A DNA stretch of 62,410 bases, the filler included, from Dugesia japonica (lineage: Eukaryota), in assembly GCA_001938525.1 (NCBI GenBank). It is 6 parts of 6 records of this genome, joined end to end, with 100 filler letters (N's around TTAATTAATTAA, not from the genome) between each part and the next. Parts side by side here need not be neighbours in the genome. Positions count along the whole stretch, not along the records: positions 8,552 to 18,457 come from MQRL01493930.1; 5 more parts are not named here. One strand, 5' to 3'. The notes under the pieces were generated by a model, which saw only the letters and a program-made list of their open reading frames with translations, did no database searches and was not told the DNA's origin. A program made the translations under genes and the position numbers. Below, piece after piece: positions 2,380-52,846 of the stretch; position 1 is the first letter of the stretch; every line of letters starts with the position of its first letter.

Positions 2380-3612
2380 GATTATATTAGATATTGTTTA
2401 CACTAGTAATGTTCTATGAGCATTTATTTGGATTTTGCTTCTAAATACTCAATATATTATAACATTTGCTGGCGCAGTCAAAGCTTTAGCAAATTTAATA
2501 TCCAATCTTAGATTTCCTTGTTGAGGCATTTGACTCTAATTTATATCGAAATCCGGAGCCAAAACAAATTTAAAAAATGATGTATTTGCTTTTAAATTCC
2601 TCAAGTGTTATTCCACAATTCATATTCTTTTCCAAATATTCCATATTTTGAACTACACTTTGCATATATGTTGTACTATAATCATCGTTTTCAAAATCTT
2701 GAATATATGTCTCTCGATAATCTATGTTTTTCGATAAAGTTATGGAAGTAGCATTTAAATGTTTAAATGTTGGAGTAAATGTTTTATAATTACCATTATA
2801 TTGATCTCCATTTTGAAATGCAATTAAAAGAAAGTTAGGTTAACGACGATCATCAAATATTTGCTCCTTATAAAATGATGTAGTATCTTTACTAATTGTA
2901 ATCGCAACAATTTCCTTCTTTCTTATCGGATAAATTGCATTTTTCTTATTTAATCTTAATTGATGAAGGTTCAACGCGTACACGCCTAACCATTAATTAA
3001 GCATCTAGTAATATATAAGTAGTTTCATTGGCTGCAGATTCCAAACAAATGTTAGAAGGTGCTCTTTCCAATCGAATGTGAACATTGACACCAGGAATAA
3101 GATCTTTCGGTTGATACATCAAATCTAATTGCCATGAACTACATAAAGACAGTGATTTAGATTTTTTAATAGAAGCTTTTATAATTTCTTCTGATCCATA
3201 CCTCATGTTTGTTAGACAAATATTTTTACTGTCGCCATTATAACTCAATATAGTTTTGATCAATGCATTTTGAATATAGATTTCATTTACATCTTCAATT
3301 TTGTAATTATTAAATGAAAGAATTACATCCTTAAAACGTATATGCAACATATAGTTACTAGGAACTGCATCATGATTGTCAGTCAAATCTTTGCCTGCCT
3401 TATAAAACTACCTTCAGTTTAATAAACAATAAAGTATTATTCAAATCCAAATATTCAGTTTGATATCTATTTATATAAAATTCTACCTCGCTTTTTGATT
3501 TAGAAATTGAATTCATTTGAAACACATCTTCAAATGCAGCATTTTCAATAACTGCTTGAGGTGATGGACCATCAAAAATACATAAGTCAGTTTTACTGCA
3601 AATCATTTTCAA
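2380..3612 (-). pseudogene. Polinton/adintovirus major capsid protein (double jelly-roll), fragmented
   Basis: N-terminus DLCIFDGPSPQAVIE...VEFYI...EYLDLNNTLLFIKLKV; middle LMYQPKDLIPGVNVHIRLER; C-terminus QQGNLRLDIKFAKAL...NVIILSI. All are typical Polinton MCP motifs. Confidence 0.8.
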
Positions 3613-3672
3613 AAATTGTTTGATGTCCTCTCATTCGTTTGTTTATACGGGATGCATTTAATTTTTTACGCT

Positions 3673-4072
3673 TTATATTAATTTTTGCTGTTGCTTTGTT
3701 ATCATATTACTTATTTCCGACGGAATTCTATTTGTTATACTGGATGTTAGCATGTTTGCTACTTTTGGAATCATATTAGTTACTCCACTAGGTAAGAAAG
3801 ACACTACATTACCAAGTTCTGCCAATGCATTAGATTCCAATGTTGGTAATATTTTTCCATTATTGGCTATTACATCTTGAGCAGTTTTCATACCAANNNN
3901 NNNNNNNNNNNNNNNNNNNNNNNNNNNNNNNNNNNNNNNNNNNNNNAAGAGGAAGCGCAAATCTATCTATTGTTTGCAACCAGCAGAAATCATACTTTTT
4001 TCCTACAAAGTAATTCAATTCTTCACCTGCTTCGGTGTTACTGTACAATGATATAATATCAGGATTAGACAT
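3673..4072 (-). pseudogene. Small conserved Polinton virion/core-type ORF (gap-interrupted)
   Basis: GEELNYFVGKKY...RFALPL...G.KTAQDVI, lying between the penton and MCP genes in the usual Polinton position. Confidence 0.5.
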
Positions 4073-5099
4073 TTTTTTCTAAAATGTAAAGTTAAATGTG
4101 ATTTTGTATCTTTTGGAAACTTGATTAATTTTCCGTTATCATCACGAATATTAATTTCTATATTGTTTATACATGTTGTTGCAATCGGTAAATACATTAG
4201 ATTATCAACTATTATTTGTACTCTATCATCAGTTTCATGTTTTTCTATCCAAAATTTCAAAAGAGGGACTTTAACATCTGCTACAATTATACTACTATTG
4301 TTAAAATAGTTGAAAGTTAATTAAAACTACTATAAATGAACATTTGTTGATGCAACTTAATTATTTTTGGATTTCTAACACCTTGCAATATACCATCCTT
4401 CAATTCTGAATGTGAATATTTTTGTTTTTCTAATCCCAATGTTTTTGTCAAGACTTTATCAAATGTAACAGTNNNNNNNNNNNNNNNNNNNNNNNNNNNN
4501 NNNNNNNNNNNNNNNNNNNNNNNNNNNNNNNNNNNNNNNNNNNNNNGCTTTCTGTTAAATATTTACTTAATTCTTCAATTTCTGTTATGTATACTTCATC
4601 TTTTAACTGTATAGTTATGTTTTCCTACTTTAGAATATTCTATTTTAAATTTAACATATTCTATTAGAGAATCTTGTTTAAATGCTGTATGCCTAATAAG
4701 AAAGTATCTAAGATCCATTTGGTTAATCTTATATGATAATCCAAATCTTATTGCATTTATTTCATTTTCAAATATGACAACATATGAATATTCACATTTA
4801 ATAGTTAAATAGCCATTATACGCCAGATAGACATTGTTATTTTCATTNNNNNNNNNNNNNNNNNNNNNNNNNNNNNNNNNNNNNNNNNNNNNNNNNNNNN
4901 NNNNNNNNNNNNNNNNNNNNNNNNNNNNNNNNNNNNNNNNNNNNNNNNNNNNNNNNNNNNNNNNNNNNNNNNNNNNNNNNNNNNNNNNNNNNNNNNNNNN
5001 NNNNNNNAGCTCTACAATGAATTTACTAGCATTATAATTCGGATGAATAAGAATACAGCTATTACTAGATAAAAGTGTATAGAAATTATTCAATGTCAT
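4015..5099 (-). pseudogene. Polinton minor capsid (penton) protein, fragmented
   Basis: N-terminus FYTLLSSNSC..HPNYNASKFIVE (FYVTLPSNSS..YP.N..S.F pattern) and C-terminus YLPI...INNIEINIRDDNGKLIKF...HLTLHFRK. Confidence 0.8.
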
Positions 5100-5104
5100 T
5101 ATTA

Positions 5105-6157
5105 ACTAACTGTGATGCTAATATCCAAGTAGGTTTTTGATATCCATGCCATTTTACATAATATTGTTTATTCTTTTTTGTTCCTTTCGATATTATTATT
5201 TTTTTGATTCAATATATAGTAGGAGGTGGAATGACTTGTAATTCTTGCCCATAAAACTTTCATTGTATGATATTATTCTCATAATCTTTAATTACATACA
5301 TGACTGGATTTTGTTTAGTATTGATTTTCGACATTTGAAACACTTCATCGCTTCAATTACTATCAAAGTTTTTAATGAATGGAGATGCCCTAATTTTTGA
5401 GATTCTAACATGGTCACGGACTTTATATTTTGGTTTCTTACTTGCTTTACTTTGATCACGCGATAACCATAGTTTTAATTGATTGTTTGAACTAACATCA
5501 ACCGGTCATGCACCATTTAAACCTTTATGACTCGAATGATTATAACTACGAATTAATTTTGACAACACATTTATCCAGGTTTTTTACCAGTATGTATAAA
5601 GTATTTTTCAAAGCATCCCTTAATGTGTGATTAAATCTCTCTACATGTGGCGCTTTATACTGAGAAAATACGGTATAATGGTTTATTTTTAGATGCGATA
5701 AAAGATCTTTGATTTTAGAGTTGTAAAATTCATTACCCAAATCTGTTTGTAAATTATCCGTATGTCCATATTTAAACATTGACTTAATTGGCGGTTCCAT
5801 ATCATTAGCCGATTTCGATTTGACTGGAATAGCTCTTGCAAATCGACTGAATACATCAAAACATGTCAAAATATTCTTGTATCGTTTATTTATTTTTTAA
5901 TATGGAATCATCTCCAACAAATCCATTTGCTATAAATCATCAATACCAAATGTTTTATATGCTCTTGTTTGAAATCTTTTCAACATTGTTTTGTTTAAAC
6001 TGTACGCTAGTTGACCCAATAACCACTTTGTAGTTTTTGATTTTTGTGCTGCTTTCATCAATTTTTCTACGCCAATAAAACTTGCGGGATTTTCTGCATC
6101 CGTACATATCGTCCTCAGCTTGCCCATTACAACAATTTGATGAAAATTTNAAATCAA
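5105..6157 (-). pseudogene. Polinton retroviral-type (rve, DDE) integrase, fragmented
   Basis: ENPASFIGVEKL..W....AYSL; DVFSRFARAIPVKSK; LQTDLGNEFYN; KAPHVERFNHTL; C-terminal VKWHGY..PTWI chromo-like tail. Confidence 0.9.
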
Positions 6158-6239
6158 AATTAGTTAATGATTGTAAACCACCCATTGTTTATTTTGAATG
6201 AGTTTATATTAATGCTGTTGCTATAAAACCAACAATTGT

Positions 6240-6509
6240 TTATTTAAAATGAGTTAAGCCAAATGCAACCAATGCAATTGGTAATAATGCAGCTATAAAG
6301 CCACTTTCTTGATTATCTCGTATTACTCGCCTCATAAATTTCTTATTTTTTGTATTTACAAGTGTTAATAGCGTTCTTTTATGTTTTTTCAATACTTCCT
6401 TTCTAGCATTGCTCACATTTACATTTCCGCGTACTATATTTATAATGATTTCAATTAAATCATCCATAACAAACGTTGGAAATGATTTTAAAATTTGAAT
6501 TCTCCCCAA
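6240..6509 (-). CDS. Small Polinton protein with an adenovirus pX-like GF(I/L)xALLP motif
   Basis: EIIINIVRGNV...LKKHKRTLLTL...QESGFIAALLPIAL; collinear with the other Polinton genes. Confidence 0.65.
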   Translation of the reverse strand: MGRIQILKSFPTFVMDDLIEIIINIVRGNVNVSNARKEVLKKHKRTLLTLVNTKNKKFMRRVIRDNQESGFIAALLPIALVAFGLTHFK

Positions 6510-8069
6510 TTTTGAAGATTGAATTATTAATGTAAAAAATAAAATACTTCGTTAGATTTTCATTTCATATTTTAATATAACTTACCCGTACTTGTTTATA
6601 ATGATTTCCATTTTCCGTTTACGTTAGTCATTTTCTTACCATACAGTTTTGAAAGTTTCTTAAATTATTTACAAAAAACTTGTTAAAGCAGATAAATTCT
6701 TTTCCATCGCTGGAGCATTTTAAACAAAAATTAGGTCAAGACTTAGTGATAGTACATTGGAAAATTTGTGTATGCTCACAAGATTCTTCTAAAAGCAAAC
6801 CTAAATTTTTATTTTTAAATATTGAATTTGTTTTGTTTGTTTTCTTTTATTAATACAAAAATAAAATTTTTTTTGTTTACTTTGAAATAAATTTGTGCTG
6901 GTAAACCTCCATTTTGCTCTTGACTTTTTATTTGTCAATGACGGAATTATTCCGGAATACCAAATTTCATCTTACGTAAATCTGAAAATTCCAGAATTCA
7001 GTTTTTGGTTAAAAATAGATTCACTTTTTGAAACTCATAGTTATTGATATTATTATATGAATATAAATATAAAATATGATTTAATAACTATTATTTTAAT
7101 GAAATTTTTATTTTTTCAAATTTTCTTCTGAAATTGTATTAATCTCACTTACTTATTTTTGAAATTTCCATTTTGGGGGCTATAGCTTGTCTTTTCTCAT
7201 TTTGTTCATCTAAACCAATTTCCGGGCTGTCAAATTACAATATTTCTGTCTAATTAACTTAATGGTTTTGCTTTCAAATCATAATCGATGTTAATAATCA
7301 TTTTAACAAATAGTATAAATATTCGTATTGTTTTCATATACTTGCTTACTAGCATTATTTTAGTGTAAATTTTGATTATATTATATTTAATTATTTTTAG
7401 ATAACTAATTAATTTTGTTTTAATTCACCTTTTTTCAGATTTTCTTTGTCTTGTTTATTAATTAATTTCAAAAATGATCAAAATGTAATTTATTGGTTGA
7501 TTTGAACATAAATTATTACTCATCAATAAATACCAACTATTTGGTGTTATTGTTCTTTATATTGGAGCATTTTCTCATAATATTAATATCCACACTTAAG
7601 TAGTCGAAATACATTTTCCTAGAGATATTTCGAAAAACCATTTGAAGCATCTATCGAAGTACTTACTCAGAACATCCAAATCACTTGACCAATCAACCTA
7701 GATAATAATGTTCATGATAAAATCAAATAAAATCAATTTTAACAGAATAATAAATATTTACAATTATATTTTTATTGACCAATCAATAAATGATCGATGC
7801 AATATACTAAGATAATAATGATTGAATAAAAATCAATAAATAACTAAGAAAATTTGATTACATAATTTTTTAGTCCTTTCATAAAACTACACAATTCACA
7901 ACAATCTTCATAATACCGTCAAAGATTGCAATTATAATAATATAAGCATAGATAATCTATCGAATATGTATACTCAATGGTGATATGCAAAGATCTTAAA
8001 TTTCTATAATTAAAGATTTTTTGAGTGAGGAATATTATCACAACGAACTAGGAATTTAATCGAAATTGA

Positions 8070-8451: not shown

Positions 8452-8551
8452 NNNNNNNNNNNNNNNNNNNNNNNNNNNNNNNNNNNNNNNNNNNNTTAAT
8501 TAATTAANNNNNNNNNNNNNNNNNNNNNNNNNNNNNNNNNNNNNNNNNNNN
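8452..8551. other. Artificial contig spacer 44N-TTAATTAATTAA-44N
   Basis: Exact 100-bp structure; the 12-mer has stops in all six frames. Confidence 0.95.
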
Positions 8552-9073: not shown

Positions 9074-10513
9074 CTAACCGCTTGCATCCGTTGCCAGTAT
9101 AAATGGTTTCCTAAAATCTGGTTGTACCAATATNGGTGCCGTCATTAACTTTTCTCGAATTGTTTCAAATGCTTTTTGATGCTCATCTGTCCAGATGAAT
9201 TTTACGTCTTGTTTCACTAGTGATTGAATCTGTCTCACGATTGTCGCAAATCCTTTGATAAATTTTCGATAGTAATTTGCCATACCTAGTAACGCTTGAA
9301 TGTCGTTCACGTTTTTCGGCACAGGTAAATTCTTTATTTTCTCAATATTCATCGGATCCTGTTGTTTTCCTTTGTCTGATATCAGATGCCCCAAATAAGT
9401 CACTTGATTTTTCGCCCATTCACACTTTTTAGGTTTCACTCGTAGTTTCCATTCTCTTATTCGTACAAACACATTCCTCAAATCTTTCAAATGTTCCTCA
9501 AACGTGACTGAAAATAGCAAAAAATCGTCTATATATACAATACACTGAGGTTTACCATGTGCCACAAAATTGATGCATCTCTGAAAGGATTCAGGCGCGT
9601 TTGTCTATCCAAACGGCATTCGCACAAATTGATATAAATCTTTGCCTGCTGAAAATGTGGTTTTCTCTTTGTCTGTTTCCTCTATTTCGATTTGCCAATA
9701 TCCACTCCGCCAATCTAATGTCGTAAATATCTTTGCATTATATAATAACGTTAACATATCATTGATGTCTGGTAACGGATCCTTTTTCGTTTTTGCATTT
9801 AATTGTCTGTAATCAATACAGAATCTCATTGTCCCATCTTTCGTCTTTACTAATACCACTGTAAATTGCCACGGCAAACAACTTGGTTCAATTACTTTAC
9901 ATTTCAACATCTCATCAATTTTCTCCTCACATATTTTCCTGCTTGCCTCTGCCTGTTTGTACGTTTGCAACTTTATTGGTGTTTCGTCTGTTAACACTAT
10001 TGCATGCTTGGTCACCGCGCACGTGCCTAATTCATTGTCTGTCCAAGCAAAATATCTCTGAATTCTTCCAATAATTGCAATAATTTGGTTTTTTCTGCTG
10101 CTGATAAGATAGTTGATTCCACTTTGAACGTTCGATCTACTTCTTCCGAATTTGTCGGAATTCGATTTCCATTCGTTAGCCATTTCTTCTTTTAATTTCT
10201 CATAATGATTACTTACCACATGGTTCATTTCTGCCTCTTTATCTTCCAGTGGGGTTAATACTCCGATTTTGGAATTGGGGAAAATAGTTATATCTTCCTC
10301 TGTTATGTTCAGTACATTCACTGGTACTTTGCCCTCGTCGGACACTTTTACTATTTCCCTTGCTGCGGGCAATTTATATTGTTTCGAAAACCCTTCGTGC
10401 GGTTCAAAAATCATATCCTCTTTACAGTTTGCTCTCGTTTTTGCAATACAAAATACTTGACTTCTCCTTGGTATCACATACTTTTCGTTTGTATATACTT
10501 CGTTATCATCCAC
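9074..10513 (-). pseudogene. Gypsy reverse transcriptase plus start of RNase H, preceded by a dUTPase-like linker
   Basis: VVLVKTKDGTMRFCIDYRQLN, LDWRSGYWQI, RMPFG*TNAPESFQR, YIDD, YLGH, LGMANYYRKFI, PFILATDASG. Ends abruptly at 9074; no integrase follows. Confidence 0.97.
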
Positions 10514-10529
10514 ATATAAATTTTCTCAA

Positions 10530-10860
10530 GAATTTGATATTTTCAATGTGGTCATATCCAAGATTACATTTTTCATCAATAATGGAATTAAATCTGTTCC
10601 CAATATGCAATCTTCACGGATATTCATCACCGTCATTTCATGCGATACTGTTCTCCCTTGATACTCAACTTCACATCGCAATTTGCCATACACTTCTGGT
10701 TGCCATCCATCAGCTAAAAATATATCTGATTTATTCTGTGTAATGTATGGTTACTTGGTCGGTGATATTAGATTATAATTTAATACTAATATTGTTGCTC
10801 CGGTGTCCAACAACGCTGATAGTATCCTACCATCGATTTTTAGGTCTATTAATATTCGAT
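10530..10860 (-). pseudogene. Retropepsin aspartic protease #2
   Basis: IDLKIDGRILSALLDTGATILVL ... (one stop) ... IFLADG ... DCILGTDLI; in frame with RT. Confidence 0.9.
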
Positions 10861-11150
10861 TACCCGCTTCAGAATAATTGTAACACACAAAATCCTTTTT
10901 CTTCGTTCGTCTCCGACAATCTCTTAATAAATACCCCATTAAACCACACACATAACATCGATTCAATTTCTCACATTCCATTTCGGAATGCCCCTTTTTA
11001 TCACAAGTTACACAATGTTTGCCTTTCTTTCGACATTCTTTAGTGGAATGGTCCGGTCTTTGACAATTTATACACCAGTTTGGGCTATTCCCAGCTCTCC
11101 AACATTGACTTGATAAATTACCTCGTTTATCGCAATGTACACATTTTGCC
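10860..11150 (-). pseudogene. Array of 4-5 CCHC-type zinc knuckles (nucleocapsid-like)
   Basis: CVHCDKRGNLSSQC, CINCQRPDHSTKEC, CVTCDKKGHSEMEC, CYVCGLMGYLLRDC and a degenerate CYNYSEAGN. Two keep an intact CX2CX4HX4C. Confidence 0.9.
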
Positions 11151-11199
11151 TGAGTCCTTGTGAACTTGCTTCCATTCGGTTGTTGACACAAATTCAAAT

Positions 11200-11490
11200 A
11201 CAATTTTCCATCAGGAAATAGCCTTCCCATCATATTCAATCCCACAATACAATCAAAAACTAAGTTCGCACATTGCCACACTGCATACTACAATCCAACT
11301 CGCCCACTGTGTTCACGGCTTGTCCGGTTACCGTTATCATTTGAATCCCATCTTTACGCATTCTTGCTTTATCAACTTCATACAGAACGCGTTCGTCAAT
11401 TATTGATCTACACGCTCCTGTATCGATCATACAATCTATTTCCCTACCGTTAATTGTCAATTTTTTGAGTAATATTCTACCACCTGGCAT
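11200..11490 (-). pseudogene. Retropepsin aspartic protease #1
   Basis: LTINGREIDCMIDTGACRSII...MITVTGQAVNTVG, then after a frameshift FDCIVGLNMM (ILGxD-type motif). Confidence 0.88.
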
Positions 11491-12269: not shown

Positions 12270-14160
12270 TATTGAGTACTACCGATTTAGCCCACTCTGG
12301 GAACAATCCCATAATCATTGTCCATGACATTTTTCTTTCTTTTTTGTATAAATCGAAACACGCTAGTAATTGAGTCAGTAATACTTTGATTATCTGCACT
12401 ATGACACTATTATTCCCAATAATCCTGTCATTGCTTGTCCGAAAACTATAAATCGACCCAACATCTTCTTTATTACATTTGCTGTTGGTTTTTGAAAGTG
12501 ATCTGGTGATAATAATAATTCATAATTCGGTCTCCCCTCTGACGTAAATGTTCCTCAAGCAACATACACAATATTAGATAAAATTTGCATTCGTTTGACC
12601 GGAAATAACATGTGCTCTCTGTCCTTCTATAGATCCTCCAATTTGTAGATACCGCCTTCTGCTACATTTAATGGATTAAAAGTCCGTCCCATCTTCAGTT
12701 TTAAGGCTGAAAAATTTCTCACAAAGGTATCTGCAGGTAATCTTTCAGGAAAACGTATTCATTTATTGTTAGCCATTTTGAAGTAGGGTCCAAATAAATT
12801 AGAACAGTTCAGTCTGTTCGGCACGAATACTTCTGGTGATATTACTCTAGTAATAGGTTGTACATACTGTTTTTCGCCCATATAATTGATTTCCATATCA
12901 TTATAGCAAGTTTTCTCTCTGGATAAAATTGCTTCCACCCTTCTAAATTGATATGTGAACATAATTTCTCCAAAAATTCGTCCGAATTGACCTTCCTCCA
13001 ATGGTAATACAGGGGTTACATTGTCGGGGTTTGTTATCGCTGTTGCTAATTTTGTCCGTAAAATTTCGCGATTTAACAAGCAGTCATTATAGATTAAATC
13101 ATGATACATTCGCTCCATAGATTGTTGCGCTAAGTAGAACAGAGTGTCTACTTTGTTATTCAGATATAAATATAACTTAGTATTCTGAGGCATAACTCCA
13201 TCTCTCGCCTTTTCCAGTCTCCGTTTTGATATGAAGATTCTATTGTAATTCGTTTTATATGCAATTTCTCCACACTTGGCCTCGGATTTCTTACGGATTA
13301 ATCTATTCATATCATTTGCATCGGTTGCCATTAATACGGTTGGTGTATCAGAACACAATAGGGCTTCCTCCTTGGTTTTCATCTCCACGTTTACTTTTCT
13401 GACTGCTGGCATTCTCTCCTCTTTAATTGAGTCTACAATTTTCTTTCCGCGATACTCATCGAACAAAACCTCTCTAAGAAATGANNNNNNNNNNNNNNNN
13501 NNNNNNNNNNNNNNNNNNNNNNNNNNNNNNNNNNNNNNNNNNNNNNNNNNTGAGGCCAAACACATTGAATACATCTTCATCTTTTTGGTCGTCGTATCAA
13601 ATAAGGCATCAAATTCTTTTAGTTCCACTCTATAACTTTCTATGGCTACTACTCCAGTCGCATAGCCTAAAGGGCTAGTGTATTTCCCCTGTACACAAGT
13701 TCCTGTTGCGTCCGAAATTGATCCTGCTGCGAATAAACGGGTTTGTACTATTTGATCTCCTTTGGCATTAATTATCTTTCCTTCGCCCACTGGTATTTTA
13801 CCGGTTGTAAATCCATATTCGCACCGTTGTCTTGTGAGGAGAACAGGTATTACTTCCATACCTGGGGATATGACTGCCGAATAACTACTTCCTCCACACC
13901 AATATACAAATACTTGCATTGTTACTTTACATTCTCTTACCTTTGTCTTATAATAAACGGATTCTTGGCACACAAAATAACTCATCGACTTCTGTACAAC
14001 TTTTAACTTTTCTGGGTTTGCTTCTGGGCATTCCTCTGCATCGATTAATGAATACACCGTTTCCCCGATATCCATATGATCACAATCATAAGCTCGGATT
14101 GCCGCACTTCGGCCCATTAAGAACATTAATATTAACACCATGAACATGGACTGCATACTG
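12270..14160 (-). pseudogene. Envelope glycoprotein related to chuvirus-type (class III, gB-like) fusogens, with signal peptide and C-terminal TM region
   Basis: Signal MFMVLILMFLMGRSAA, then IRAYDC..YSLIDAEEC, ECKV...YWCG..SYS, CGEIAYKTNY..IFI, YLNNK, CLLNREIL, GEIMF, CYNDMEI..Y.QPITRVI, C..LFGPYF. Manual continuation past the 12759 stop gives GGIYKLEDL..MLFP and the TM FIVFGQAMTGLLGIIV/IVQIIKVLL. Confidence 0.85.
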
Positions 14161-14258
14161 CTAGTTCTTGTACTTGGATTCGCTTCGGTTCCGTATTCGT
14201 CGATATAATCTTTTAATAATGCATGGACCCGTTCGTTTAATTTTCGACGCGAATTCGC

Positions 14259-14687
14259 TTTTGGTTTCATCATTTGGATTATTCCATTCCACCCTCCGGC
14301 ATTTACTAATATCGGATCGATTTGATCATTTGTTATTCCGACTATCGGCAGATTACTCAATTGAAATTTCATTCCTGGCCTACAACGAGCCACTGCTATT
14401 TGCGTTTGTTTTACTAAATATTCAAATGCCACTAGTAATTTCGGAATTGTCGAGCAATTCGACAGTACCCCTTGTACTTCTTTTTCCATCGTTTCCCGAT
14501 CCTTGAGTAGTGTATGTTTGGCAACTGGTAATTTTGCTATGATTGCTTCTAATATCACTGCTAATTGTTTGCTCTCCGTTGACAAAATTGTATTTCCGAT
14601 CCATAGTTTTAAATTTGGATANAGCGCTAGCAATACCTGGTGTACTCGTTTCTCGGTTGATAACGTGTGTGGTTCTAATCTCTCCAT
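14259..14687 (-). CDS. Bcl-2-like domain at the N-terminus of the 642-aa Env ORF
   Basis: BH1-like VQGVLSNCSTIPKLLVAFEY aligns without gaps to [20 protein letters not shown]. BH2-like ILVNAGGWNGI follows 40 residues later (39 in Bcl-2). Confidence 0.65.
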
Positions 14688-14690
14688 TAT

Positions 14691-15300
14691 TTACGAGGAT
14701 AATTCGGCCATTTGTTCATCCCTGGTTGGTTTTCTTCTCGTTGTGCCACTTGTTGTTGCTCCTTTTTGTCGACCCCTGGGCTTTTTATCCATCCACGTCT
14801 CCGAATCGCGATTCACTCGTTGATGTGTCTCATTATCGGTGGTATCATCGGTATTATCCGTTGTCTTCACTTCTTCAAACATTGCACGTGGTGGTATCAT
14901 CTCGCATGTTATTCCACCCAATCTAACTGATATATCATCGTCCTCCAGATCCAGGTCTACTTGATTTGGATTGAATTTTCCCGACTTCTTTGGTTTTATT
15001 AGTATTTCTGACTCTGACGTTGTCGCTGGTTCCATTGAAGTTATTTGAATTTCTTCATCATCCCCCTCATCTTCAAGATTCAAAATTTGTTCAACTATTT
15101 CATCTTTTGTAGTATTTTCTGTTGTCGACTCCTTGATTGGCGATTTTCTTGGTCGTCCTCTTGATTTGGCAACTACTTCACTCGTGTTACCTGGCTTTAC
15201 TAGTTGTAAAAATGATTTTATTGATGTCTGACTGGATCCTAGTCCCAATTGCAATTTATTTTTAACTTCCTTGGCTGGTAATTTTCTTCTGGTCAATCGT
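14691..15300 (-). pseudogene. Low-complexity acidic/basic region with AT-hook motif(s)
   Basis: KSRGRPRKSP is a canonical AT-hook core; KPRGRQKG is a weaker second one. In frame with the Bcl-2/Env ORF across a single TAA at 14691-14693. Confidence 0.6.
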
Positions 15301-15314
15301 TTACTACCTTCCGG

Positions 15315-18300
15315 TTTGATATAAATTTTATTCTCTACCTTTTGTCGGATATCTAACGTTCCGATGATATNGTTATTCAATAATTCCCGATTATTCAATA
15401 GTAGTACATATGGTGGCTCGAATGGTATTTTGAATTTCATCTGTTATACTGTCTCGTACACCAAATTTGGGATTCTCGTTACATCTGGTTCTATGATTCT
15501 GAAGCTAAATCTAAGTGGTAATACTTCATCTTATTCGCATTTCTTCAACCTTGATATCAGCAGTTTAATTTGCTTTGGTCTCCATTTGCATTTCTCTTTA
15601 CATCTGGATATTTCGTAAGTCAACGACCTCAACTCCTTAATTGACAAATCACTCTGCAATACTTGATCCGCTATATGCTCCACACTGGTTTTGTTTATAC
15701 TTTTCTCTTGATATTTTGATATGAATTGATCTGCCATATCGGCAGAATTTCCACTACACTTTTTCGATTTACCGGTCATTACCGCGACCATTTCCTGTGA
15801 TCTGCTCAACTCCTGATTTGATTTGTATTGTCGGTGTAATCTTGGTCTCTGCTGTATTACTGCTATCGTTTCTCGATTTGCTAATTTGATTTCTTTATTA
15901 TGTAGTTGCAATCCCCATGGCAACTTTGGATTGATATTCTCGGCATAATATCGTATTGTTTTTCTTAATAAATTCTCTCTAATTGTCTTTAACGTATACC
16001 GGTTTCTCTCATTTTCTTCACTTGCAAAAATATAGACATTCATTATATGACTTGGCTATGTGCCTGATCTCTTTACTGGATACTCGTCATGGTCCTCCGT
16101 AATATCTCCTTCACAATAAACTACAATATCTTCTCGTTTAGTAATTGGTGTATTCTCTTTTCCTCTCGCAGTTTGTTTATTCAAATGTTTGATAATTTTC
16201 TTTATTAATTTATCCCAACTTGTCGTCGTTTTAACATCAAACTCTTTACTTGATTCATCCGGAAAACGTACAGTTACTTGCACCTCTTGTTTTGATATGC
16301 TATCTGCATGAGTTATCGTTAACGTATGTATAAGCGTGTACAACGTTTTCCCTACTATCATACACAATTGGTTCAATCTATTTATTATCTCTTGAATATT
16401 TAATTCTTTCATTTGACTGTAATTCTTATAAATTGTTAACGCCATTTTTGCATGAGTTTGTTTCAAACTCTTCCATGGTTCACTTTCATTTTCTGCTTCT
16501 GCAATCCACTCAATCTCCTCGTCAGTAACGATTCTCAAATATTCCATTATATCTATTTCGTTTACATACACATTTCTCATTTTTGTTCTAATTCGACTAA
16601 TTGATTGTAATTCAAACATTTCGGTTTTCTGTCATCTAATTCCAACGTTAATTCAGTAATCTCTCCTGGTCNCAATCGGAACTCAATCACATGTTGATCC
16701 CTTTTATTCAACTTGTCCCTTTGTATAATCAAATAATCACACATAATCCAATACTTCTCAAAGGTTTTCTCTAAAGGCAATTTACTCAATATTGCTCGCA
16801 ACTCACCCACTCTGGTAGTTTGAAGTCCAGAACTCCACTATTTTCGTCTGCATGGTCATGAAAAAATTATCATCTATTGTAGGATAATTGATTTTTACCC
16901 CAAAATCCGATCCAACCGTTGTTGTTATTATCATCTCCTGGTACTCTTTAATTAATTCAGACCAGTTCCTCCGATGTTCCCATAGTATATCATAATGATA
17001 GTGTGCATCCCAGACTAAATTCAGCATTCTCCAATACGTTTGTTTCGGAATTAATTCCTTNCTCTCCAATGTGATACCCACGTATTTGTTTATTGCAGCA
17101 AAGTTATGATAGTAATCCTCATTGCTCTCCTCATTGACAATAGCTGATGTTTCACTCGGCTCATTCACACTTCCTTCTTCCACATTACTTGACTGTTTAG
17201 TTCCCTTTTTACTTCTATTTATTATTTTTATTGAAAATGATCTCATCATAAAAACTGTTCATCTTTAGCTTCTGTAGTAGTTTTAATTACAACGCTCGGC
17301 ATTTCAACTTTTGGTAATTCCATCAACTGAATTGCCAGTGGTGCCTTCTTTTCTGGCAAAGGCGCGAGATATTTGATTTGGCATTTATTCAATGAAATCA
17401 TTATATTTTCAGTTGTTCTAAAGTATAAATGAGGCCAAATTAGTTCGTTATATAAACGCATTCTCCGACTCTCTAACAACGTAATTACCATAGAAGTTCC
17501 AGGTTTCAGACCATATTCATAAATATGGGCATTTACATCATTGATGCTAACTACTGACACTGGTGTTCAAACAATAAATTCGCCTAATGGTTTTGCCCAG
17601 TTGACCTCCTCCAACGCATTGAGTAAATCTTTCACCGTCGTTCCTTTCAATTCTACCCCTCGTGGGATGTTACGCTTTGTCGACACTGGTACTTTCTTCA
17701 AAACCTGATCCATAGTGATGTATGGGGTTCTATCTTCATCTGGTCGCCATGCTTCCATTGCTTTGATTTTATAATCCCCCACAGTCGTGTTTTCCAGCAA
17801 CTCTTTCTCATATTCCAGAATTAATGGTCTCCATTTTTGACCCGTCATCGTGTCAATATGACCTGGTTTGGCTAACTCAACTAAATGATTCATTAATTTC
17901 CAATAAGCCTTTCTGCTTAGTTCATCTTTCAATAACTTAGCATTCTTTATGACTGTTTCTACATAATCATACACTCTTGTTTTGTTCTAATAGGTGCTTT
18001 CAATCGCGCTGGATTGCTTTTGGTTATCATGCTGATTTGAGCCATGGTATTTTCTGATTTTGCTGCTCCTCTTGTTGGTCGGGTCATTGGCTGTTTGATC
18101 TTCTTTACCACGTTTGCCAGGAATCCCTGCTGCAATTTACTTATTCCTTTGGTTGTGGTTGTTGACTCCGTCCGTAATAACACTATATATTTGTGATATT
18201 TCTTTTCAAATGATTTTACTATTTGCTCAGTCGTTCTGAAATCAAAATAATACCACAATGGACGTTTAATGCGATGCATATCTACTAAATCAATTATCTT

Positions 18301-18457
18301 TTCAAATGATTTTACTATTTTCTCAGTCGTTCTGAAATCAAAATAATACCACAATGGACGTTTAATGCGATGCATATCTACTTAATCAATTAACTTTATT
18401 GTTGTTTCACTTGGACAGACCCCATATTCCGATATATGTGCTTTAACATCATCTTGT
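15315..18457 (-). pseudogene. Repeated ubiquitin-like (beta-grasp) and helical modules in the 5' part of the retroelement polyprotein
   Basis: Ubl-like segments: TTVKDLLNAL..AHIYEYGLKPGTSMVITLL; VGELRAILSK..QHVIEFRLxPGEITELTL; VQVTVRFPDESSKEFDVKTTT; ETV*QMKFKI..LLLNNRELLNNxIIGTLDI. Internal repeats YW..W..LI.EY....TTVG and FRTTE.I..S..K each recur. Confidence 0.55.
18203..18392. repeat. 96-bp in-frame tandem duplication
   Basis: MHRIKRPLWYYFDFRTTE(K/Q)IVKSFEK is encoded twice, 96 nt apart. Confidence 0.9.
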
Positions 18458-18557
18458 NNNNNNNNNNNNNNNNNNNNNNNNNNNNNNNNNNNNNNNNNNN
18501 NTTAATTAATTAANNNNNNNNNNNNNNNNNNNNNNNNNNNNNNNNNNNNNNNNNNNN
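18458..18557. other. Artificial contig spacer
   Basis: 44N-TTAATTAATTAA-44N. Confidence 0.95.
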
Positions 18558-20184: not shown

Positions 20185-20694
20185 AGGGTGTTACAAAAAA
20201 CTTTCGTTTTTTTAAGTTAGGAAATCGCCAGAATAACAATATCAGATATGAAGTTTCAAATAATTGTAGCCTGTAATTTTTATGGCGATTTCAGATTTAC
20301 AGTCTTAGAACGTAAACAAACCATTAATTCTGAACGATATATCGATTTTCTGAAATCAATCTTAGATATGAGAGAATCTGGATGTCTGGAGCTGATGCAT
20401 GATAATGCTCGTCCGCATACGGCTGTCGTAACGCAAAAGTTCTGTAAAGATCATCAAATTAAACAATTAAAGCAACCCCCTTATTCGCCTGATATGAATT
20501 TATTGGATAGATTCGTCTTTAGAAATCTCTAATTTGACAGGAGAAAAAAACGATTTCCTAATAATAAGTCGTTTTCGGAATATATACAGAATTTTATGGA
20601 AAATATGATTACAAGGTCTAAGTTATCTAAAGAGTTAAATCATTTGAAAAATAATTTGCCCGAGGTAATCAAGAAGAATGGAAATTATATTTAA
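20185..20694 (+). mobile_element. Tc1/mariner transposase catalytic-domain fragment
   Basis: TINSERYIDFL...LMHDNARPHTA...QPPYSPDMNLLD..VF, continuing past a stop to ...IKKNGNYI*. Confidence 0.88.
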
Positions 20695-22934
20695 CTCTAT
20701 ACATTTATAAATATATATAATTATTCATTTAAACCTATATATTACTTTGTACTGAACAATATTAAAGAAGCTTTCAATAAATATTTTATGAAATTGCATA
20801 GAAGTCGATACAGTTTTCAAAATCATATGTAAAAACATGGGAAAATAATTAAAATACTGCGTAAAAGTCATAAAAAAGTTTATGAAATTTCATAGAAGCT
20901 TTATAATTGCAATTATTGTGAGAATAATTGTTGGACTTAACCATTAATCGCATTTGAGATTTCATTAAAATAAAGAAAAACGTTCGATCAAAATAAAATG
21001 TATTTTTTATAGTGTTATTTTCGACACTTGTCTTCTTCAGGAATAATGACTTTTTGATGGATTCAAAACGATAAGAGATCTTTGCTACAAAATTCGTTAT
21101 ATTTTATCAATTTTTTTGATCTATTTAAATTATGATTTTATTATTTTAAAATTAAATTTCAAAAAAATCTTTTTCAATCAAATTGAATTGAAAATCTGTC
21201 GAATGTTTTAAAAAAATAATATACTAAAGTAATAAAATATGTATTTTTTTTATTTAAATATTGTTTTATTTAAATTTTTTATTTTTAAATTAAATTAATT
21301 TATTTAAATATTATTTATTTTTAAATATATAAAATATGTATTTTATTAACATTAAAATATTACAATACTAAAACTTTAAAACATTAAAATATTATAATTT
21401 TCTTACATCTATAGTAGCTTTTGAACGTAGTGGAACTAGAAATTTCAAGTGTTTTTGATAATTCAAAATATTTAAATTCACTATCATGCAGGGTGTGAAA
21501 ATTCATTAGACTAACTTTACAATGGTGGTTTAGTAGCAAGTAGATAAGAGAACACTAAACCACAGTAGATGAATGCATACGTACGAGAACAGTTGTGAAT
21601 TTTCTTTAAATGACTTCTATTCAACTTCATAAAATATTTAGCAACTTTTATGAAATTTCATAAAATATTTAGCAACTTCGATGAAATTTCATTAAAATAA
21701 ATAAAATGCTTCAATCAAAACAAAATGAATTTTTTATAGAAATTCAAATTTAAACACATTAAAATACTAAAATAAAATTATTTTTTTCTAAAGAGGATAA
21801 ATTTAAAGAGGATAAATTAAAGAGGATAAACCTAAGATTAACATGATTTTTAATAATTACAATAATTTAAAATTTTAAAAGAAAATTAGTATCAATAAAT
21901 TAAATTTTAAAGAAAATTTTTTTTTAGTAAAAAAAATATTGATAAAAGATTGTTTTTATATGAATTGGAAGAAGCTTTTGAATGTTTATTAAAAGTTGAT
22001 GGAAGAAAATAATTTTATTTTAGTATTTTAATAGTTTAATGTGTTTAAGTTTAAATTTGAAAATATTATGTAAAGTTTAAATCATTACAATAAAAATTAT
22101 AATGATAGTTAACATAACAATGTAAATAAAATCATTACAATAAAAATTGCGATGAAAATAACTTATTAATACACTAAAAATATTGATAATATTATGTANN
22201 NNNNNNNNNNNNNNNNNNNNNNNNNNNNNNNNNNNNNNNNNNNNNNNNNNNNNNNNNNNNNNNNNNNNNNNNNNNNNNNNNNNNNNNNNNNNNNNNNNNN
22301 NNNNNNNNNNNNNNNNNNNNNNNNNTAAAATTTAATCTTAATAAATCTAACCTCTATTCATAATTTCCTTTGTCATAAACATCCTTAGAAAAATCATTTG
22401 ATTTTTCAGTCTAAAATATAAATCAATAACAATAAATTAATTAATTAAACTTACAATTTTTGTTGAAATATTTTTCTTTTAATTCAATTTGTTTATATCT
22501 AAAATTTAAAAAAAATCATTAAAATAAATTAACAAATAAATATTCACTTATTTTATAATAGATTTTTAAAGTTCATTTAACGTTTCATTTATTTAACTCA
22601 GTTAAACAAAAATAAATAAATAATTTCCATATAATAATAAATCATCCATCATTTTTAATTTAATATACTTAAACAGAAATTAATTTAATATTAATTTAAA
22701 ATTTATTAATTAAAAACTTATTAATTAAAATCTTATGAACTTTAAAAACANNNNNNNNNNNNNNNNNNNNNNNNNNNNNNNNNNNNNNNNNNNNNNNNNN
22801 NNNNNNNNNNNNNNNNNNNNNNNNNNNNNNNNNNNNNNNNNNNNNNNNNNNNNNNNNNNNNNNNNNNNNNNNNNNNNNNNNNNNNNNNNNNNNNNNNNNN
22901 NNNNNNNNNNNNNNGTACTTTGTTTAATTGAATT

Positions 22935-23195
22935 CATGTTGCATTTTCCTTGTTATAGTTGCATTATTGTTGCATTTTCTTTGTTATAGTTGCATTACTG
23001 TTGCATTTTCTTTCTTATAGTTGCATAAGTGATGCAATAGATTTCATGTTGCATTTTCTTTGTTATAGTTACATTTTCCTTGTTATAATTACATTTTCTT
23101 TGTTATAGTTGAATTAGTGTTGCATTTTCCTTGTTATATCTGAATTCATGTTGCAGTTTCTTTATTATAATCTCATACGTGTTGCATTGTCTTTG
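22935..23195. repeat. Minisatellite (gttgcattttc(c/t)ttgttata-type units)
   Basis: About ten degenerate tandem copies are visible. Confidence 0.85.
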
Positions 23196-24199
23196 TAATG
23201 ATTGTATTCATTTTAATAGGGGAACATAATAACATGTCGCTCCATCCCTCTTCAAAAAAAATAATTTTTTTGTATTTGTTTCAATTACAAGGGTTTTTTT
23301 TCAAGAAATTGTACAATTTATTTTACCTTTATGTTTTAATTATTATTATTTTTTTTTTTAAAATTTTTATTTAAATTTTATTTTTTAAAACTTTTTTTAA
23401 AATTTTGTTTTTATTTTTTATTAAAATTCTTTTGTTAAAATTTTTTTTTTTCAAATTTTAATTTTACAGTTCATCTCTTTTTTTGTTAATTTATTTAATG
23501 TCACGAGTAACATTTTCAAATAGAGAATTAAAAAGTAAGATAGGAATGTCTCATACACTTTTATTCTTAAATGCTTTCTTTCGGTGGAAAAATAGGAACA
23601 AAGAAATTTAGTTTTTTGAAGACAGAGTCAAGTAGAAACATGATATCACACCGAACTTTACATTGTTGGACGCACAATCAGAACACGAACAAATTAGTGT
23701 ACAAAAATATTTCTACTAACGTAATTATAAAAATATTATTCAACAAAGAAATTTCAAAAAGTGGATAAAATCAACCATTTTGAATTTTTTTAAAATTGTT
23801 TCTTGTACAATTTGGTAAAGAATTAAAAACCATTTATCCATTGTTTAAAGGACCAGTATGACAAAATGTATACTTTACGAGAAAATCACATAAGAAAGAA
23901 CAAAGGACTTTTAAAAAATATTTTTAAAATGAATCTTTGTCATCATTTCTTTATCAATATGTATCAAAGTTTATATCATTTGAATGGCAATAAGATGACA
24001 AATACGCGTGTCATGTTTTCTAAACAGTTTGACGAATAAGTAACGAGTTAGTCGTCATTTAAACATTAAACATGAATAAAAAATGAACAAATTAACTACT
24101 CACAAAATGTAAATAGATAAAACTTATTTTAAAAATGTTAATATGTTGCATTCGTGTTGCACATCTCCTATAAAAATGAACACACATACATATACTTGG

Positions 24200-26660
24200 T
24201 TCTATTTTCATAGACTTCTAAGTAAATTTTATAAAATTTCACCTACTTCTATGTAATTTTTAAAATTTCTTATCGACTTCTGTGAAATTTTTAAAATATT
24301 CTAAGGACTTCTATGCAATTTTCAAAGATTTTCCCCATTCGAATGGGAATTCGAATTTTTGGGGACCTCTATGTAATTTTTAAAACTTTAGCTCGACTTC
24401 TATGTAATTTATTAAAAATTGCAATGACTTCTATGTAATTTAGGAAATATTTTAACGACATATAATTAATACAGTTGAAATATCTNTGTAAGATAACACA
24501 CAAAAGACAATTATGAGAAAAATTTATTTTAATCACTGACATGTTCTTTATTACACATTTAAAAATTCAATAAATATGTCTTTATCAGTAATTTTTTTAT
24601 CATTTATTTCTCATTGGACTGTGAATCCGTCATATCCTTATTTTTACTTGTTTCAGACATTATTTCATCAAAAGTATCATCATTTGGAGGCATATCAATA
24701 TATAAATATTATGTATATTATATATAATACGTTTATTCTATGTACTTAATGACTCTATGTCGTTTATTGTATGTATTTTACTGTATGTATGGGTTTATTA
24801 TATGTTTTAACTAGTTCAATCGAGTTATTTATGTGTATTTAAGTGACTTTATTTAGGTATTTGTATGTATAATATATGACTATATTGAAATCGTTGTAAG
24901 TATTATATAACTATATTAAGTTTATTGTATGTATTTATTTGTATGTATTAGGTATAGTCTGAATATTTAAAAGAATTTATTGAGGTATTTATGTGTATTA
25001 TATCACTATATTGAGTTAATTGTATGTTTTATTTGACTATAGGGTATATTGTGTGTATTTCAATGATTTTAGTTGGTTAAATATATGTATTATATGACAT
25101 TATTTGATGCGATTTATGACATTATTTCGTGTATTTTGTGTATTATATGGTATATTATATGTATTATATGAATATATAGAGTATATTAAGTATGTATTAT
25201 ATCACTACATTGTGTTTATTGTGTGTAATATCTNACTTTATAGATCTTAATATGTGTATTATAAGAACCTATTGGGTTTATTGTATGAATCTGGTTAATA
25301 TCCATTAGTTTACTATGTATGAAGCTCTATTAGATTTTTAATAGTCATATGCTTATGTTATGTTTAAAAATATTACATAGATGTACATGCAGTTTTTCAA
25401 AACATTACATAGACATCTGTGCGATTTTGAAATATTTGATCAGAAAGCACATATAAAACCCTACAAAACCCAATAATAACATATAAAACTTTATAAATCT
25501 AATAAAAACTTAGTAAAAGATTATCAGACCACATAAAGCCTTATAATAACCCTATAATTACTATAGAATCACCCTATAAACCTATCAAAATCCTATAATA
25601 ATATAATTACCATGTAATAGCTTTATAAAACCATATTGGAGTTAGTATAATATTTTTCATGAAATTTATGAAGATTTGTATGAACGTTGTATATTTTATT
25701 AATAAAATGATCTGTAGATTGTAAATATTAGATGTATTAATAGGTTTTGAAGGTTATGAATAGATTTAATGTATATATTTCTTTGAATTATTTGCGTTCA
25801 TGTGATGTAATTATTGAATGTATGCTGTTTATTGTTTCATTGAGTTCATTGGCTTTATTGCGTGATTTTCATAACTCTAGTAAGTTTTTCAGGTATATAG
25901 AGTAAATATTTAGAAATAATACCATGACATTTGGTAAATTTTTAGAAACATTTTAGGGACCTCTAGTAACGTTTTTGAAATAATTAACAGATTTCTAGTA
26001 ACTTTTTACAAAAATTACCGGATCTCTGGTAAGTTTTTGAAATATTTTAAATACATCTAGTAATTCTTTGTGTTATTTTACCAATGTTTTACATGGGATT
26101 CTGAAATTGTTAGCGACATCTAGTAAATTTTTGAAATAATTGCATGGCGTTTGTAAACTTTTTGAAATATTTAAATGACATTTGGTAATGTTTTGAAATA
26201 GTTACAAGATATTTGGTAACTGTTTGAAGTAATTACATGACAATTGATAACCTTTTATTGAAATATTAGTAATTTTAAAAATATTGATTAACAAGCTCAT
26301 ATAAAAGCATATAATTACTCTATAAAATCTATGAACCTTAAAAAAGATTTATATAATTACCATATTAAACCCTATAAAAGCATAATGAGAATATATAAAT
26401 CCGTATATTTACTCTATAAAAATCTTATTATTCTTATAAAAAGCAATATAATAACAAATAAAAACCCATAAATAAGCTAAAGAAACATATAAAACCCATA
26501 AATTATATAAAACTCTATTAAAACCCTATAATTACCTAATAAAAACATAATAACCATATATTTACCTTATAAAAAACTTATAATGACTCTATAATTATCT
26601 TAGAAAACCTTTTAATAACCCTATAGAAACATATAAATACCTTATAAAATACCTGACTAT
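24200..26660. repeat. Composite minisatellite-rich repeat (~31-32-bp units such as gacttctatgtaatttt, tttattgtatgtattatatga, catctagtaa.ttttt, aaaaccctataa)
   Basis: Several adjacent degenerate arrays. The same blocks recur in similar order at 48200-49920. Confidence 0.8.
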
Positions 26661-47960: not shown

Positions 47961-48199
47961 CCCCACTGTTGATAATTTAATGATTAAAAATTTCTGGTGA
48001 CGTAATCATAAAAAGGTATTACACAAAAAACGTTAAAAATAAAATACAGCCGCCATTTTAAATTTTTAAAATTTTATTCTTGTACAAGTTTATAAAGAAT
48101 TAAAAACTACGTATCTATTACCTTAATGACTAGTATAAAAAAGTTTTTTGTTTTGATACAATTTAGAATCTAATTTAAAATATAAAGTTGAACAAAGAA

Positions 48200-49920
48200 A
48201 TTTTTTATGGGGGACTTCTATGCAATTTTTAAAATATTTCAACGATTTCTATGTAATTTATTAAAAATTGTTATGACTTCTATGTAATTTTGGCTATATT
48301 TTAACAACATCCATGTAATACAATTGAAATATCTATGTAAGATAACACTCAAAAGACAATTATGAGAAAACATTATTTAAAACACACATGTTTTTTATTA
48401 GACACTTGAAAATTCAATCAATATGTCTTCATCTGTCATTTCTTTATCATTTTCCTCATCATTGGACTGTGAAACAATCATTTCCTCATCAATCATATCC
48501 TTATTTGTAGGTGTATCGGGCATTAATTTATCAAAAATATCATCATTTGGAGGTATTTCAATTATTTCCTCATAAATAATGACATCATTTATAGTTGTAT
48601 CAGGTATTTCCTCATCAATATAGACATAATTTAGTAGAGTATCGTTCATCTCTTACTTGGATGTTGCATCTATTTCATCTTTCTCTACGTCAATCATATC
48701 GTCTATAATATTATAGAAATGCATTAACAATCAGTTGTTAAGTTTGTATCAGTCCTTTATTTATCTTACATTTTCATTGCTTAACATGTATTTATGATGT
48801 ACACATGGATTAATTTGTATAACATTTTAATGTCCCCCTGGAACTTTTAATATTAATATTTTAAATAGATGAGTATTTTGCTGTATAATGTGTATTATAT
48901 GGGTCTATTTGGTTCACTCTATATATTTACCTGTATGCATAGGGTTTATTGTATGTATTTAACTGAATTTATAGGGTTTATTGTACCTTTTAACTAGTTC
49001 AATTGAGGTATTGGTATGTATTTAATGCTATTAGGTTTATTGTATGTATTATATGACTAAAGAGTATATTGTGCGTACTTAAATAAAGTTATTTCATTAA
49101 ATATATGTATTATATGACATCATTGGATGCAATTTATGACAATATTTTGTGTATTACGCGAGTGTATAAATAAAAATATATAAACTTTAATTAACTTTTA
49201 TGTAATATCTGTGTTATTTTCTCCTATGTTTTACATGGGATTTTGTAAACGCTTAGTAAAATATATAAAATTTTTGGGCAAATACATAGAGATATATGTT
49301 ATGTTTGAAAAATATTACATAGATCTTAATGTGTGTATTATAAGAACCTATTTGGGTTTATTATATGTATAATGGTTTTCTGTGTATAAGACCCATTTAG
49401 TTTATTGTATGAATACTACTTGTTGGTTTCATCTGCATAAAATTCAATTGAGTTATTTGTGTGCATTTAATGCCTCTATTAGTTAAATTTGTTTATTATA
49501 TGTCTTAATGAATTTATTTTGTGTATTATATAACTATATTGGGTTTATTGTATGTAATAATTTGTATACTTAAATGACTTTATTGAGTATTTTTTGTGTA
49601 TTATATGACATTATTGGATGTAATATTTGATATTATTTCGTGTATTATGCGTATTATATGACATTATTTTGTATATTGTTTGTATTATGTGAATATATAG
49701 AATATATTATGTGTGCATTATACAATTTAAAAATTTTTATTGTGTGTATTATATGACAATCTTGGGCGTATTGTATGTATTTAAGTGACTTTATTGGGTT
49801 AATTATATGTATTATATGACTAAATTGGGTTTATTGCGTGCATAATATAACCTTATTAGGTTTATTGTATGTATTATATGGATATATAGGGTATATTGTA
49901 GGTATTTATGTGACTTTAAT
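48200..49920. repeat. Second copy of the composite minisatellite-rich repeat, containing an 83-aa acidic ORF (48398-48649, minus)
   Basis: Shares ttgaaatatct.tgtaagataacac.caaaagacaattatgagaaaa and flanking arrays with 24200-25400. Confidence 0.8.
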
Positions 49921-50912: not shown

Positions 50913-51040
50913 AATGAAAAAATATGAAATTTGGATGAAAATTAAGGTGGAAAATGAAAGTAAGTGATTATCTTTAATTTACAAAATTAAATTAATTATC
51001 AAAGAATTTAATTAATTAAGGAAACTAGAGAAATGTTTAC

Positions 51041-52774
51041 TCTTGTTTAACTTTATCAAGGATTTTTTCTTCCTGAGTTTGTTCTTGTAGTTTTTTCATT
51101 AATATTTCCCGTTTTTTCTGTTCAGCACATTCTATTTGACTCTTTAAAATATCTTGTGCTTTCAATCTTTTTTCAATCAGTTTTTCTTGATTTACATCAT
51201 TTTTACCGAATACTGGTTCTTCTGAATCTGGCTGTAATTTTGGAATCGGTAGAGATTTATTGACAACTTGTGTATCAAGAGCTTTTTTATAAAGATCCTT
51301 TGACTTCTCTTTGTCTTTCAAATATTGATCGCGTTGCTTAGCCAAATCCTCTGCTAATTGCATTTGCTCTAATCGTTCTATAAAAGCTTCTTCTTCTTCA
51401 TTTTTCTTTCTTGTTAAAACCTTTTTCTCAACCTGTTTATCAAGTTCAGAACTGAAATTTCATTATAGTTAAATAATAAATAATACAAATAAAATGGAAA
51501 CCTTAAAATACTTTGCTTAATGATTTTTGGTGGAGTAAGTGGTCTACTTTCAAATAAATATGATCTATACATGTTAGGATCTTTTGACTTATGTTGTGTT
51601 TTAATGGCTTCTGCAACTCCGGCATTGAAAGCAGAGATTTTCTGACTATCATATTTCTTTGATAGAAGAGTTTCCTGAAAATAAGAGTTTCAATTCAGGC
51701 AACGATTTGAAAATTTAATATCAAAATAATATTATTAAATAACGGAAATAAAGCAGAAAGTCACTGAGACAACTTTTAATTTTATTTCATACTACTCACT
51801 AATTACAATCAGAATTAGGTGGACCTATTTTACTTTCTAAATACAAAGAAATAGAATAAAGATCATATTGACATTAAATTAAAAACTCTCAATATACTCA
51901 GAATACTACTGGATAGAACAAATTTCTTAAAAATTAATGAAATCTTTGCCATTGTCTAAAACAGTGAAAGCAACGACAAATGTGATGTAAAAATATATTT
52001 TGCTCTACAGATTCGACATATATAACCTTTTTTTCCTTATTTTCTTAAGAAACAAAAATATTAAAATTGATTCAAGTGGTCTCATTCTTTGACATTAAAT
52101 AAAGTAATCACTGGGAAAAACCTATTTAGGACAAATATTTTCCGGTATGGTAATAGGTTAAATTTTATTAGAAAAAGTGAACACATTGCAAACAATATAA
52201 AATCTGTAATCAGATTAATTCGACAACGAAATTTAAAAAAGAAAAATGTAAAAAAACTTCATAATCAATAATTTTAGATAAAATGCTGGAAATGTTACTC
52301 CATAATGAGAAAATAAATTATCAAGCCATGACAATATGGAATTAATTCCATGTATATTTTAATTCCAATTAAAAAATTAAGTTATCCCGCGAGATTACTA
52401 TCTAAATTATCAAATAGAAAATTAATTCTAATTCTAGCAACATCTATTGTATTTGAAGCCACAATTTTTCAGTTATTATTTTCATATCTATTGTGACGAG
52501 GACCTTTTCATAATCATTAAAAATTATCTCAAAATAATTTAAATAATGAATGATGAATGTGTCTAGGTTTGTAATTATTACTTAGTAGCCATTTTATATT
52601 TTGATGTGAAACAATTAATGTTTATGAACAAGTTTTATTTGGAGAAATAACAAATGTTAAAACAATAAAACAATAAAATAAACTAAACCTTTAACCTTTA
52701 CCGTATTAATCCAATTTCATATTATATATGGAATTAAACTTTTTGTTTGTATCTTTATTGTCGTTAATATTAAA

Positions 52775-52846
<72 letters not shown>

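Follow-up and report, generated by a model that had tools for sequence, protein, structure and literature searches.

Can the polyprotein of a retroelement carry ubiquitin-like domains of its own, and what might such domains do in the host cell? The question is raised by a stretch of 62,410 nucleotides, filler included, from Dugesia japonica (assembly GCA_001938525.1; hereafter, the window), in which an earlier note had proposed up to five ubiquitin-like (Ubl) domains, here termed segments 1 to 5, in the 5′ region of a retroelement. The five segments lie in the accessory portion of a broken Gypsy-type retroelement, present in high copy number, in which an envelope protein (Env) is encoded ahead of the proteases and reverse transcriptase (RT). 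An integral, non-conjugatable Ubl-fold domain in the polyprotein of this element is likely for one of the five segments, namely segment 4 (16017-16289). The best overall explanation, which we regard as reasonably probable, combines a Burro-type element, one Ubl-fold domain, a three-copy repeat and a role that faces the host.

Identity and layout of the retroelement

The DNA surrounding the element is AT-rich and eukaryotic, with long TAA repeats and assembly gaps. The minus strand, on which all domains of the element described below are located, forms from about 18.46 to 9.07 kb a single coding run that is interrupted by stops and frameshifts; except for stops, one frame extends from 16631 to 12759, and the accessory region is hence continuous with Env. 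Stops of this copy are present in segments 1, 2, 4 and 5 (two in the last), near 17.25 kb and at 14691-14693, and the frame changes near 18.0-18.2, 17.25, 16.82 (in segment 3) and 16.6 kb; these interruptions, which the earlier note had correctly seen to cross several of the segments, were read as X when the frames were joined. Family contigs of four sequencing runs do not share the stop at 14691-14693, as would be expected if other copies encode a single uninterrupted protein.

The first hydrophobic stretch of the coding run is a signal-peptide-like segment at the start of Env (14091-14165), and hydropathy analysis revealed none in the frames 5′ of 14165. Env itself (12402-14150; broken) is a mononegavirus-type fusion glycoprotein that matches the Pfam family PF24664 (Monjiviricetes_fusion; 5.5e-48) and is 33% identical to the ENA protein P0006/P0009. 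The latter joins, in a single frame, a helical region, Env and a motif like that of an aspartic protease, and is thus a relative of this layout. Between Env and the RT (10586-11460), two aspartic proteases, one at 11266-11460 (partial match; gag-asp_proteas, 3.1e-6) and one at 10586-10858 (RVP, 2.6e-6), flank four CCHC-like zinc knuckles (10930-11150; found by translation; zf-CCHC_4, E 0.033); this double protease could be a family trait or the mark of a composite copy. An RT and the start of an RNase H follow at 9080-9844 (RVT_1, 5.5e-14; RT_RNaseH_2, 1.9e-11), giving the protease-RT-RNase H order of Ty3/Gypsy-type long terminal repeat (LTR) retroelements. At one end, near 9075, the copy stops within RNase H, and at the other an N gap interrupts it at 18458; no integrase after RNase H and no LTRs were seen between these limits. 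The gaps at 8452-8551 and 18458-18557 are assembly joints, because in each of them N runs surround a 12-base TTAATTAATTAA linker; the 5′ end of the element is therefore truncated by the assembly and not necessarily by biology.

The family is abundant and high-copy: 7380 contigs of one run (a number of contigs, not a copy count) match 13551-18457, a region of about 4.9 kb, and cover 30 of its 30 bins, as do four further runs. Raw RNA reads on the element numbered 0, 66 and 1 in three runs; expression is not shown by them, because they are few, mostly less than 90% alike and on both strands. BURRO1 transcripts have been reported in planarians and are raised after smedwi-2 RNA interference, according to the available part of PMC8532177.

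Burro/GYPSM1 elements of planarians are giant and Gypsy-like, occur in thousands of copies and encode one polyprotein of about 4,900 residues (PMC6431247; Arkhipova and Yushenova, 2019). As far as the available text of that account goes, this polyprotein carries BIR-like and MATH-like domains and, between MATH and BCL-2, a Ubi2/SUMO-like motif (PF11976); BCL2 is separated from the protease by an Env with kinship to mononegavirus fusion proteins, and a dUTPase-like domain precedes the RT. The N-terminal Gag, MATH, BIR and ankyrin, and a length of more than 25 kb, are Burro features beyond what is visible of the present copy, whose 5′ part is hidden by the gap. Like Burro, the element studied here has an accessory region that precedes a mononegavirus-type Env, which in turn lies ahead of protease, RT and RNase H, a candidate Ubi2/SUMO-like domain ahead of the BCL2 position (segment 4, with leads below threshold), and a very high copy number in an AT-rich host. 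Unlike the available Burro text, which holds no count for the Ubi2/SUMO-like motif, no three-copy repeat and no two proteases around four knuckles, it displays the repeat and both proteases. We assign it with considerable confidence to the Burro type. The designation of the accessory region as 5′ is apt for this copy, cut at 18458, but not for Burro, where the region sits in the middle of the polyprotein.

Segment 4 and the neighbouring candidate domains

Segment 4 (16017-16289; one stop near its end) likely adopts a beta-grasp (ubiquitin) fold, with insertions. Its Pfam leads (RA_2, E 0.037; FERM_N, E 0.1; both below threshold), its lead among PDB sequences (the N-terminal domain of threonyl-tRNA synthetase, E 0.31) and its fold matches converge on this fold weakly but consistently. 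The matches are scattered over RA, FERM, SUMO, USP7-Ubl, CIDE-N and TGS domains and show no concentration on ubiquitin, and PF11976 itself was not matched in Pfam. A wide VIA search with a model of 464 residues was uninformative for segment 4, as its list was filled by the helical part. Both structure models of this study had a shallow alignment or none behind them, since usable protein relatives of the Ubl region numbered zero in repeated protein-level searches (and zero loci in locus searches); PHROGs yielded just weak, unrelated matches. The sole protein match to the Ubl region, a tandem-repeat protein, was judged spurious.

The peptides quoted in the earlier note are present in the translated minus strand where it had placed them. 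Their alleged register with ubiquitin does not exceed chance when compared with 96 distinct viral ubiquitins, 72-100% alike: local alignments gave z values of 1.2 (segment 5), -0.8 (segment 4), -0.9 (segment 3) and 1.6 (segment 1), a glocal ubiquitin profile gave 0.45 (segment 5), 0.77 (segment 4) and -0.55 (segment 2), none of the segment-centred scores came near the best of 91 windows taken across the polyprotein, and the hhalign probability against ubiquitin was at most 0.3%. It should be noted that these tests are insensitive: the profile behind them is narrow, and even segment 4 does not pass them. Further ubiquitins retrieved to widen the set were nearly identical to those in it and were left out. 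Of the five beta-grasp domains envisioned, segment 4 stands on its weak, consistent leads, and the other four segments had no ubiquitin-clan match in Pfam at E<=10.

Segments 1, 2 and 3 are paralogous to one another and belong to the three copies of a repeat of about 275 residues per unit. Of unit 1, only the C-terminal fragment (segment 1; 18385-18457) is visible, the rest being hidden by the N run from 18458; the tail of this unit shows a 96-bp tandem duplication (18201-18397; 98 of 101 letters agree when the sequence is shifted by 96) that may be a true duplication or an assembly artefact. Unit 2 consists of a helical part (17741-17986), the alpha/beta segment 2 (17460-17725; one internal stop; possibly Ubl-like) and a tail (17380-17459), and unit 3 of a helical part (16880-17117) and the alpha/beta segment 3 (16620-16879), with its frameshift near 16.82 kb. 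Segment 1 is 40% identical over 53 residues to segment 2 plus tail (E 9e-9; z 8.6; 0 of 500 shuffles), the second half of segment 3 matches segment 2 (z 5.8; 0 of 500 shuffles; E 0.001), the two helical parts match each other (E 1e-4; z 8.0), and the tail of unit 2 matches that after segment 1 (z 6.9; 0 of 500 shuffles). One fold assignment would therefore carry to all three segments. In all three, a terminal strand comes after the motif H-x-x-E-(Y/F)-x-(L/V)-x-P; by eye, motif and strand together resemble the ubiquitin stretch TLSDYNIQKESTLHL. The model of segment 2 (pLDDT, the predicted local distance difference test, 53; alignment of 3 rows) has the order strand-strand-helix...helix-strand, and no Ubl is among the matches listed in three fold searches. 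The three segments thus look Ubl-like by eye, yet their modelled counterpart did not fold as a beta-grasp, and we regard the chances of this fold as evenly balanced.

For segment 5 (15300-15572; two stops, one N), a beta-grasp fold is doubtful, though possible: Pfam at E<=10 and PHROGs gave no ubiquitin-clan match, sequence comparison detected no kinship with the other segments, and it appeared unfolded (pLDDT about 23-37) as part of the 464-residue model. It is followed by an acidic, low-complexity linker (14694-15299) that has no Pfam match. The sequences RGRPRK at 15144-15161 and PRGRQK at about 14760-14780 of this linker are presumably AT-hook-like motifs, and may hint at binding of AT-rich DNA. 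The accessory frames contain Gly-Gly only once, as VRLGG in the linker (14913-14927), approximately 125 residues past segment 5, and the absence of di-glycine from all five segments bears out the earlier note. Next to the linker, at the position of Burro's BCL2-like domain, lies a domain preceding Env (14170-14690) that has no Bcl-2 match in any search, Pfam included; its Atlas result had a ProQ below 0.8 and was not used. A GGW motif within it, seen by eye only, is what we take to be BH2-like.

Proposed role and its rivals

In working copies, the entire region would be translated as one giant polyprotein, whose accessory region would stay cytosolic, be severed from Env at the signal-like stretch and be trimmed by the aspartic proteases that the element encodes. 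The Ubl-fold domain, which would not be conjugatable, would most likely serve as a protein-binding surface for host ubiquitin/SUMO or cell-death regulators, acting beside the BCL2-, BIR- and MATH-like domains of Burro and helping the host cell to tolerate the element. Integral, non-conjugated ubiquitin folds that act as binding surfaces are found in Ubl1 of coronavirus nsp3 (PMC8769549, available part) and in Ubl1-5 of USP7, both among the fold matches of segment 4; the likeness is one of fold (8-14% identity in the rows shown), with no evidence of homology or of common partners. The previously suggested decoy or adaptor for the host ubiquitin machinery is plausible, and, given the fold, we lean slightly towards a host-adaptor role.

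Several points weigh against the reading as a Burro-type element with a Ubl-fold domain. All signals of segment 4 are below threshold, with Foldseek E values of at least 0.18; the model that gave its fold matches has a mean pLDDT of 34.6; and the VIA rows for it had been pre-selected by Foldseek. The likeness to Burro rests on a published description and not on direct sequence comparison, the pair of proteases around four knuckles is missing from the available Burro text (PMC6431247), and no tool confirmed the BCL2-like and dUTPase-like domains of Burro here; the stretch of approximately 110 residues at the dUTPase-like position, between protease and RT, has no Pfam match. Gag, MATH, BIR, ankyrin, integrase and LTRs all lie outside the window. 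Finally, purifying selection on the region is not shown, because an excess of third-position differences from other copies was not significant (26 of 64 differing places, p 0.14; 64 of the 74 listed places were used, 10 with unsure frame being dropped, from the best-supported rows only).

The main rival explanation assigns the Ubl-fold domain and the repeats an internal scaffolding role: they would bind nucleocapsid, RNA or DNA of the element itself, in the way that Ubl1 of nsp3 binds N (PMC8769549, available part), and would have little tie to host ubiquitin. A lead of this kind is offered by the helical part of the repeat, for which Atlas proposed tyrosine-integrase core-binding/SAM-like domains (0.94); this lead is a weak one, with a recognition of 2099 and no more than 101 of the 256 features in common, and Pfam, PHROGs and the PDB profile search did not confirm it. 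Burro's published neighbours MATH, BIR and BCL2 point, moreover, to host regulation (PMC6431247, available text), and we consider the scaffold role unlikely, if the strongest of the rivals.

Somewhat less likely again is a reading in which each of the five segments is a Ubl domain, three being placed in a tandem repeat of helical domain, Ubl and tail and two standing singly, and all together forming a multivalent array of ubiquitin mimics that would soak up host ubiquitin/SUMO readers. The paralogy of segments 1-3, the resemblance of their common motif and strand to TLSDYNIQKESTLHL and the compatible strand and helix order of the segment 2 model speak for such an array, and the missing ubiquitin-clan matches of four segments do not. 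Its furthest extension, that Ubl domains incapable of conjugation, four or five in number and three arranged in tandem repeat with a DNA-binding-like helical domain, are released to the cytosol with the Bcl-2-like domain as a multivalent decoy blunting SUMO/ubiquitin-dependent silencing and cell death of the host, strikes us as improbable.

It is a little more improbable still that no segment is a beta-grasp and that the patterns arise from strands and helices alternating by chance. No match was significant in any search, and the sequence tests against ubiquitin stayed at shuffle level; however, the leads that segment 4 has in Pfam, among PDB sequences and in fold searches agree on a single fold, and a Ubi2/SUMO-like domain has been published at this position of Burro (PMC6431247, available text). 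Processing signals cut by host deubiquitinases to free parts of the polyprotein, as also proposed in the earlier note, would suit the location within a polyprotein and have a precedent in the ubiquitin insertions of pestiviruses, but are highly improbable in an element that encodes its own aspartic proteases and lacks Gly-Gly both within the segments and directly behind them; the sole one lies in the linker near 14918.

Surroundings, parallels and significance

Elsewhere in the window, fragments at 483-848, 20221-20532, 56056-57076 and 60925-61765 presumably represent mariner/Tc1-, hAT- and Tigger-type transposases, and integrase-like and small open reading frames at 2997-6551 (minus strand) are what we take to be a Polinton/Maverick remnant. 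Satellite-like arrays with a 31-bp period, partly repeated about 24 kb apart, occupy 22900-26260 and 48180-49920, and exon-like open reading frames at 51037-54528 (minus strand) probably belong to a host gene (coiled-coil, CxxC motif).

The Anakin elements, which carry a chuvirus glycoprotein, constitute a BEL/Pao lineage of mosquitoes. Like them, the element described here is of the LTR type and has acquired a fusion glycoprotein of the Monjiviricetes type; an upstream Ubl region is not reported for Anakin in the available parts of the accounts (PMC7642597, PMC12440569).

The core claim of a Ubl-like domain in such a polyprotein is not new, because a ubiquitin/SUMO-like domain has already been published for the Burro polyprotein (PMC6431247, available text); integral Ubl domains are supported for one segment, and five are not shown. 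The three-copy repeat and the double protease were not found in the available literature, and Grohme et al. 2018 with its supplements, Repbase and Figure 2A of PMC6431247 may hold them. The additions made here are hence modest and comprise the coordinates of the best-supported Ubl-fold domain, a three-copy repeat of about 275 residues, and two proteases. If the repeat is indeed a Ubl array, it would provide defined domains for testing the proposal that Burro meddles with host ubiquitination and apoptosis.
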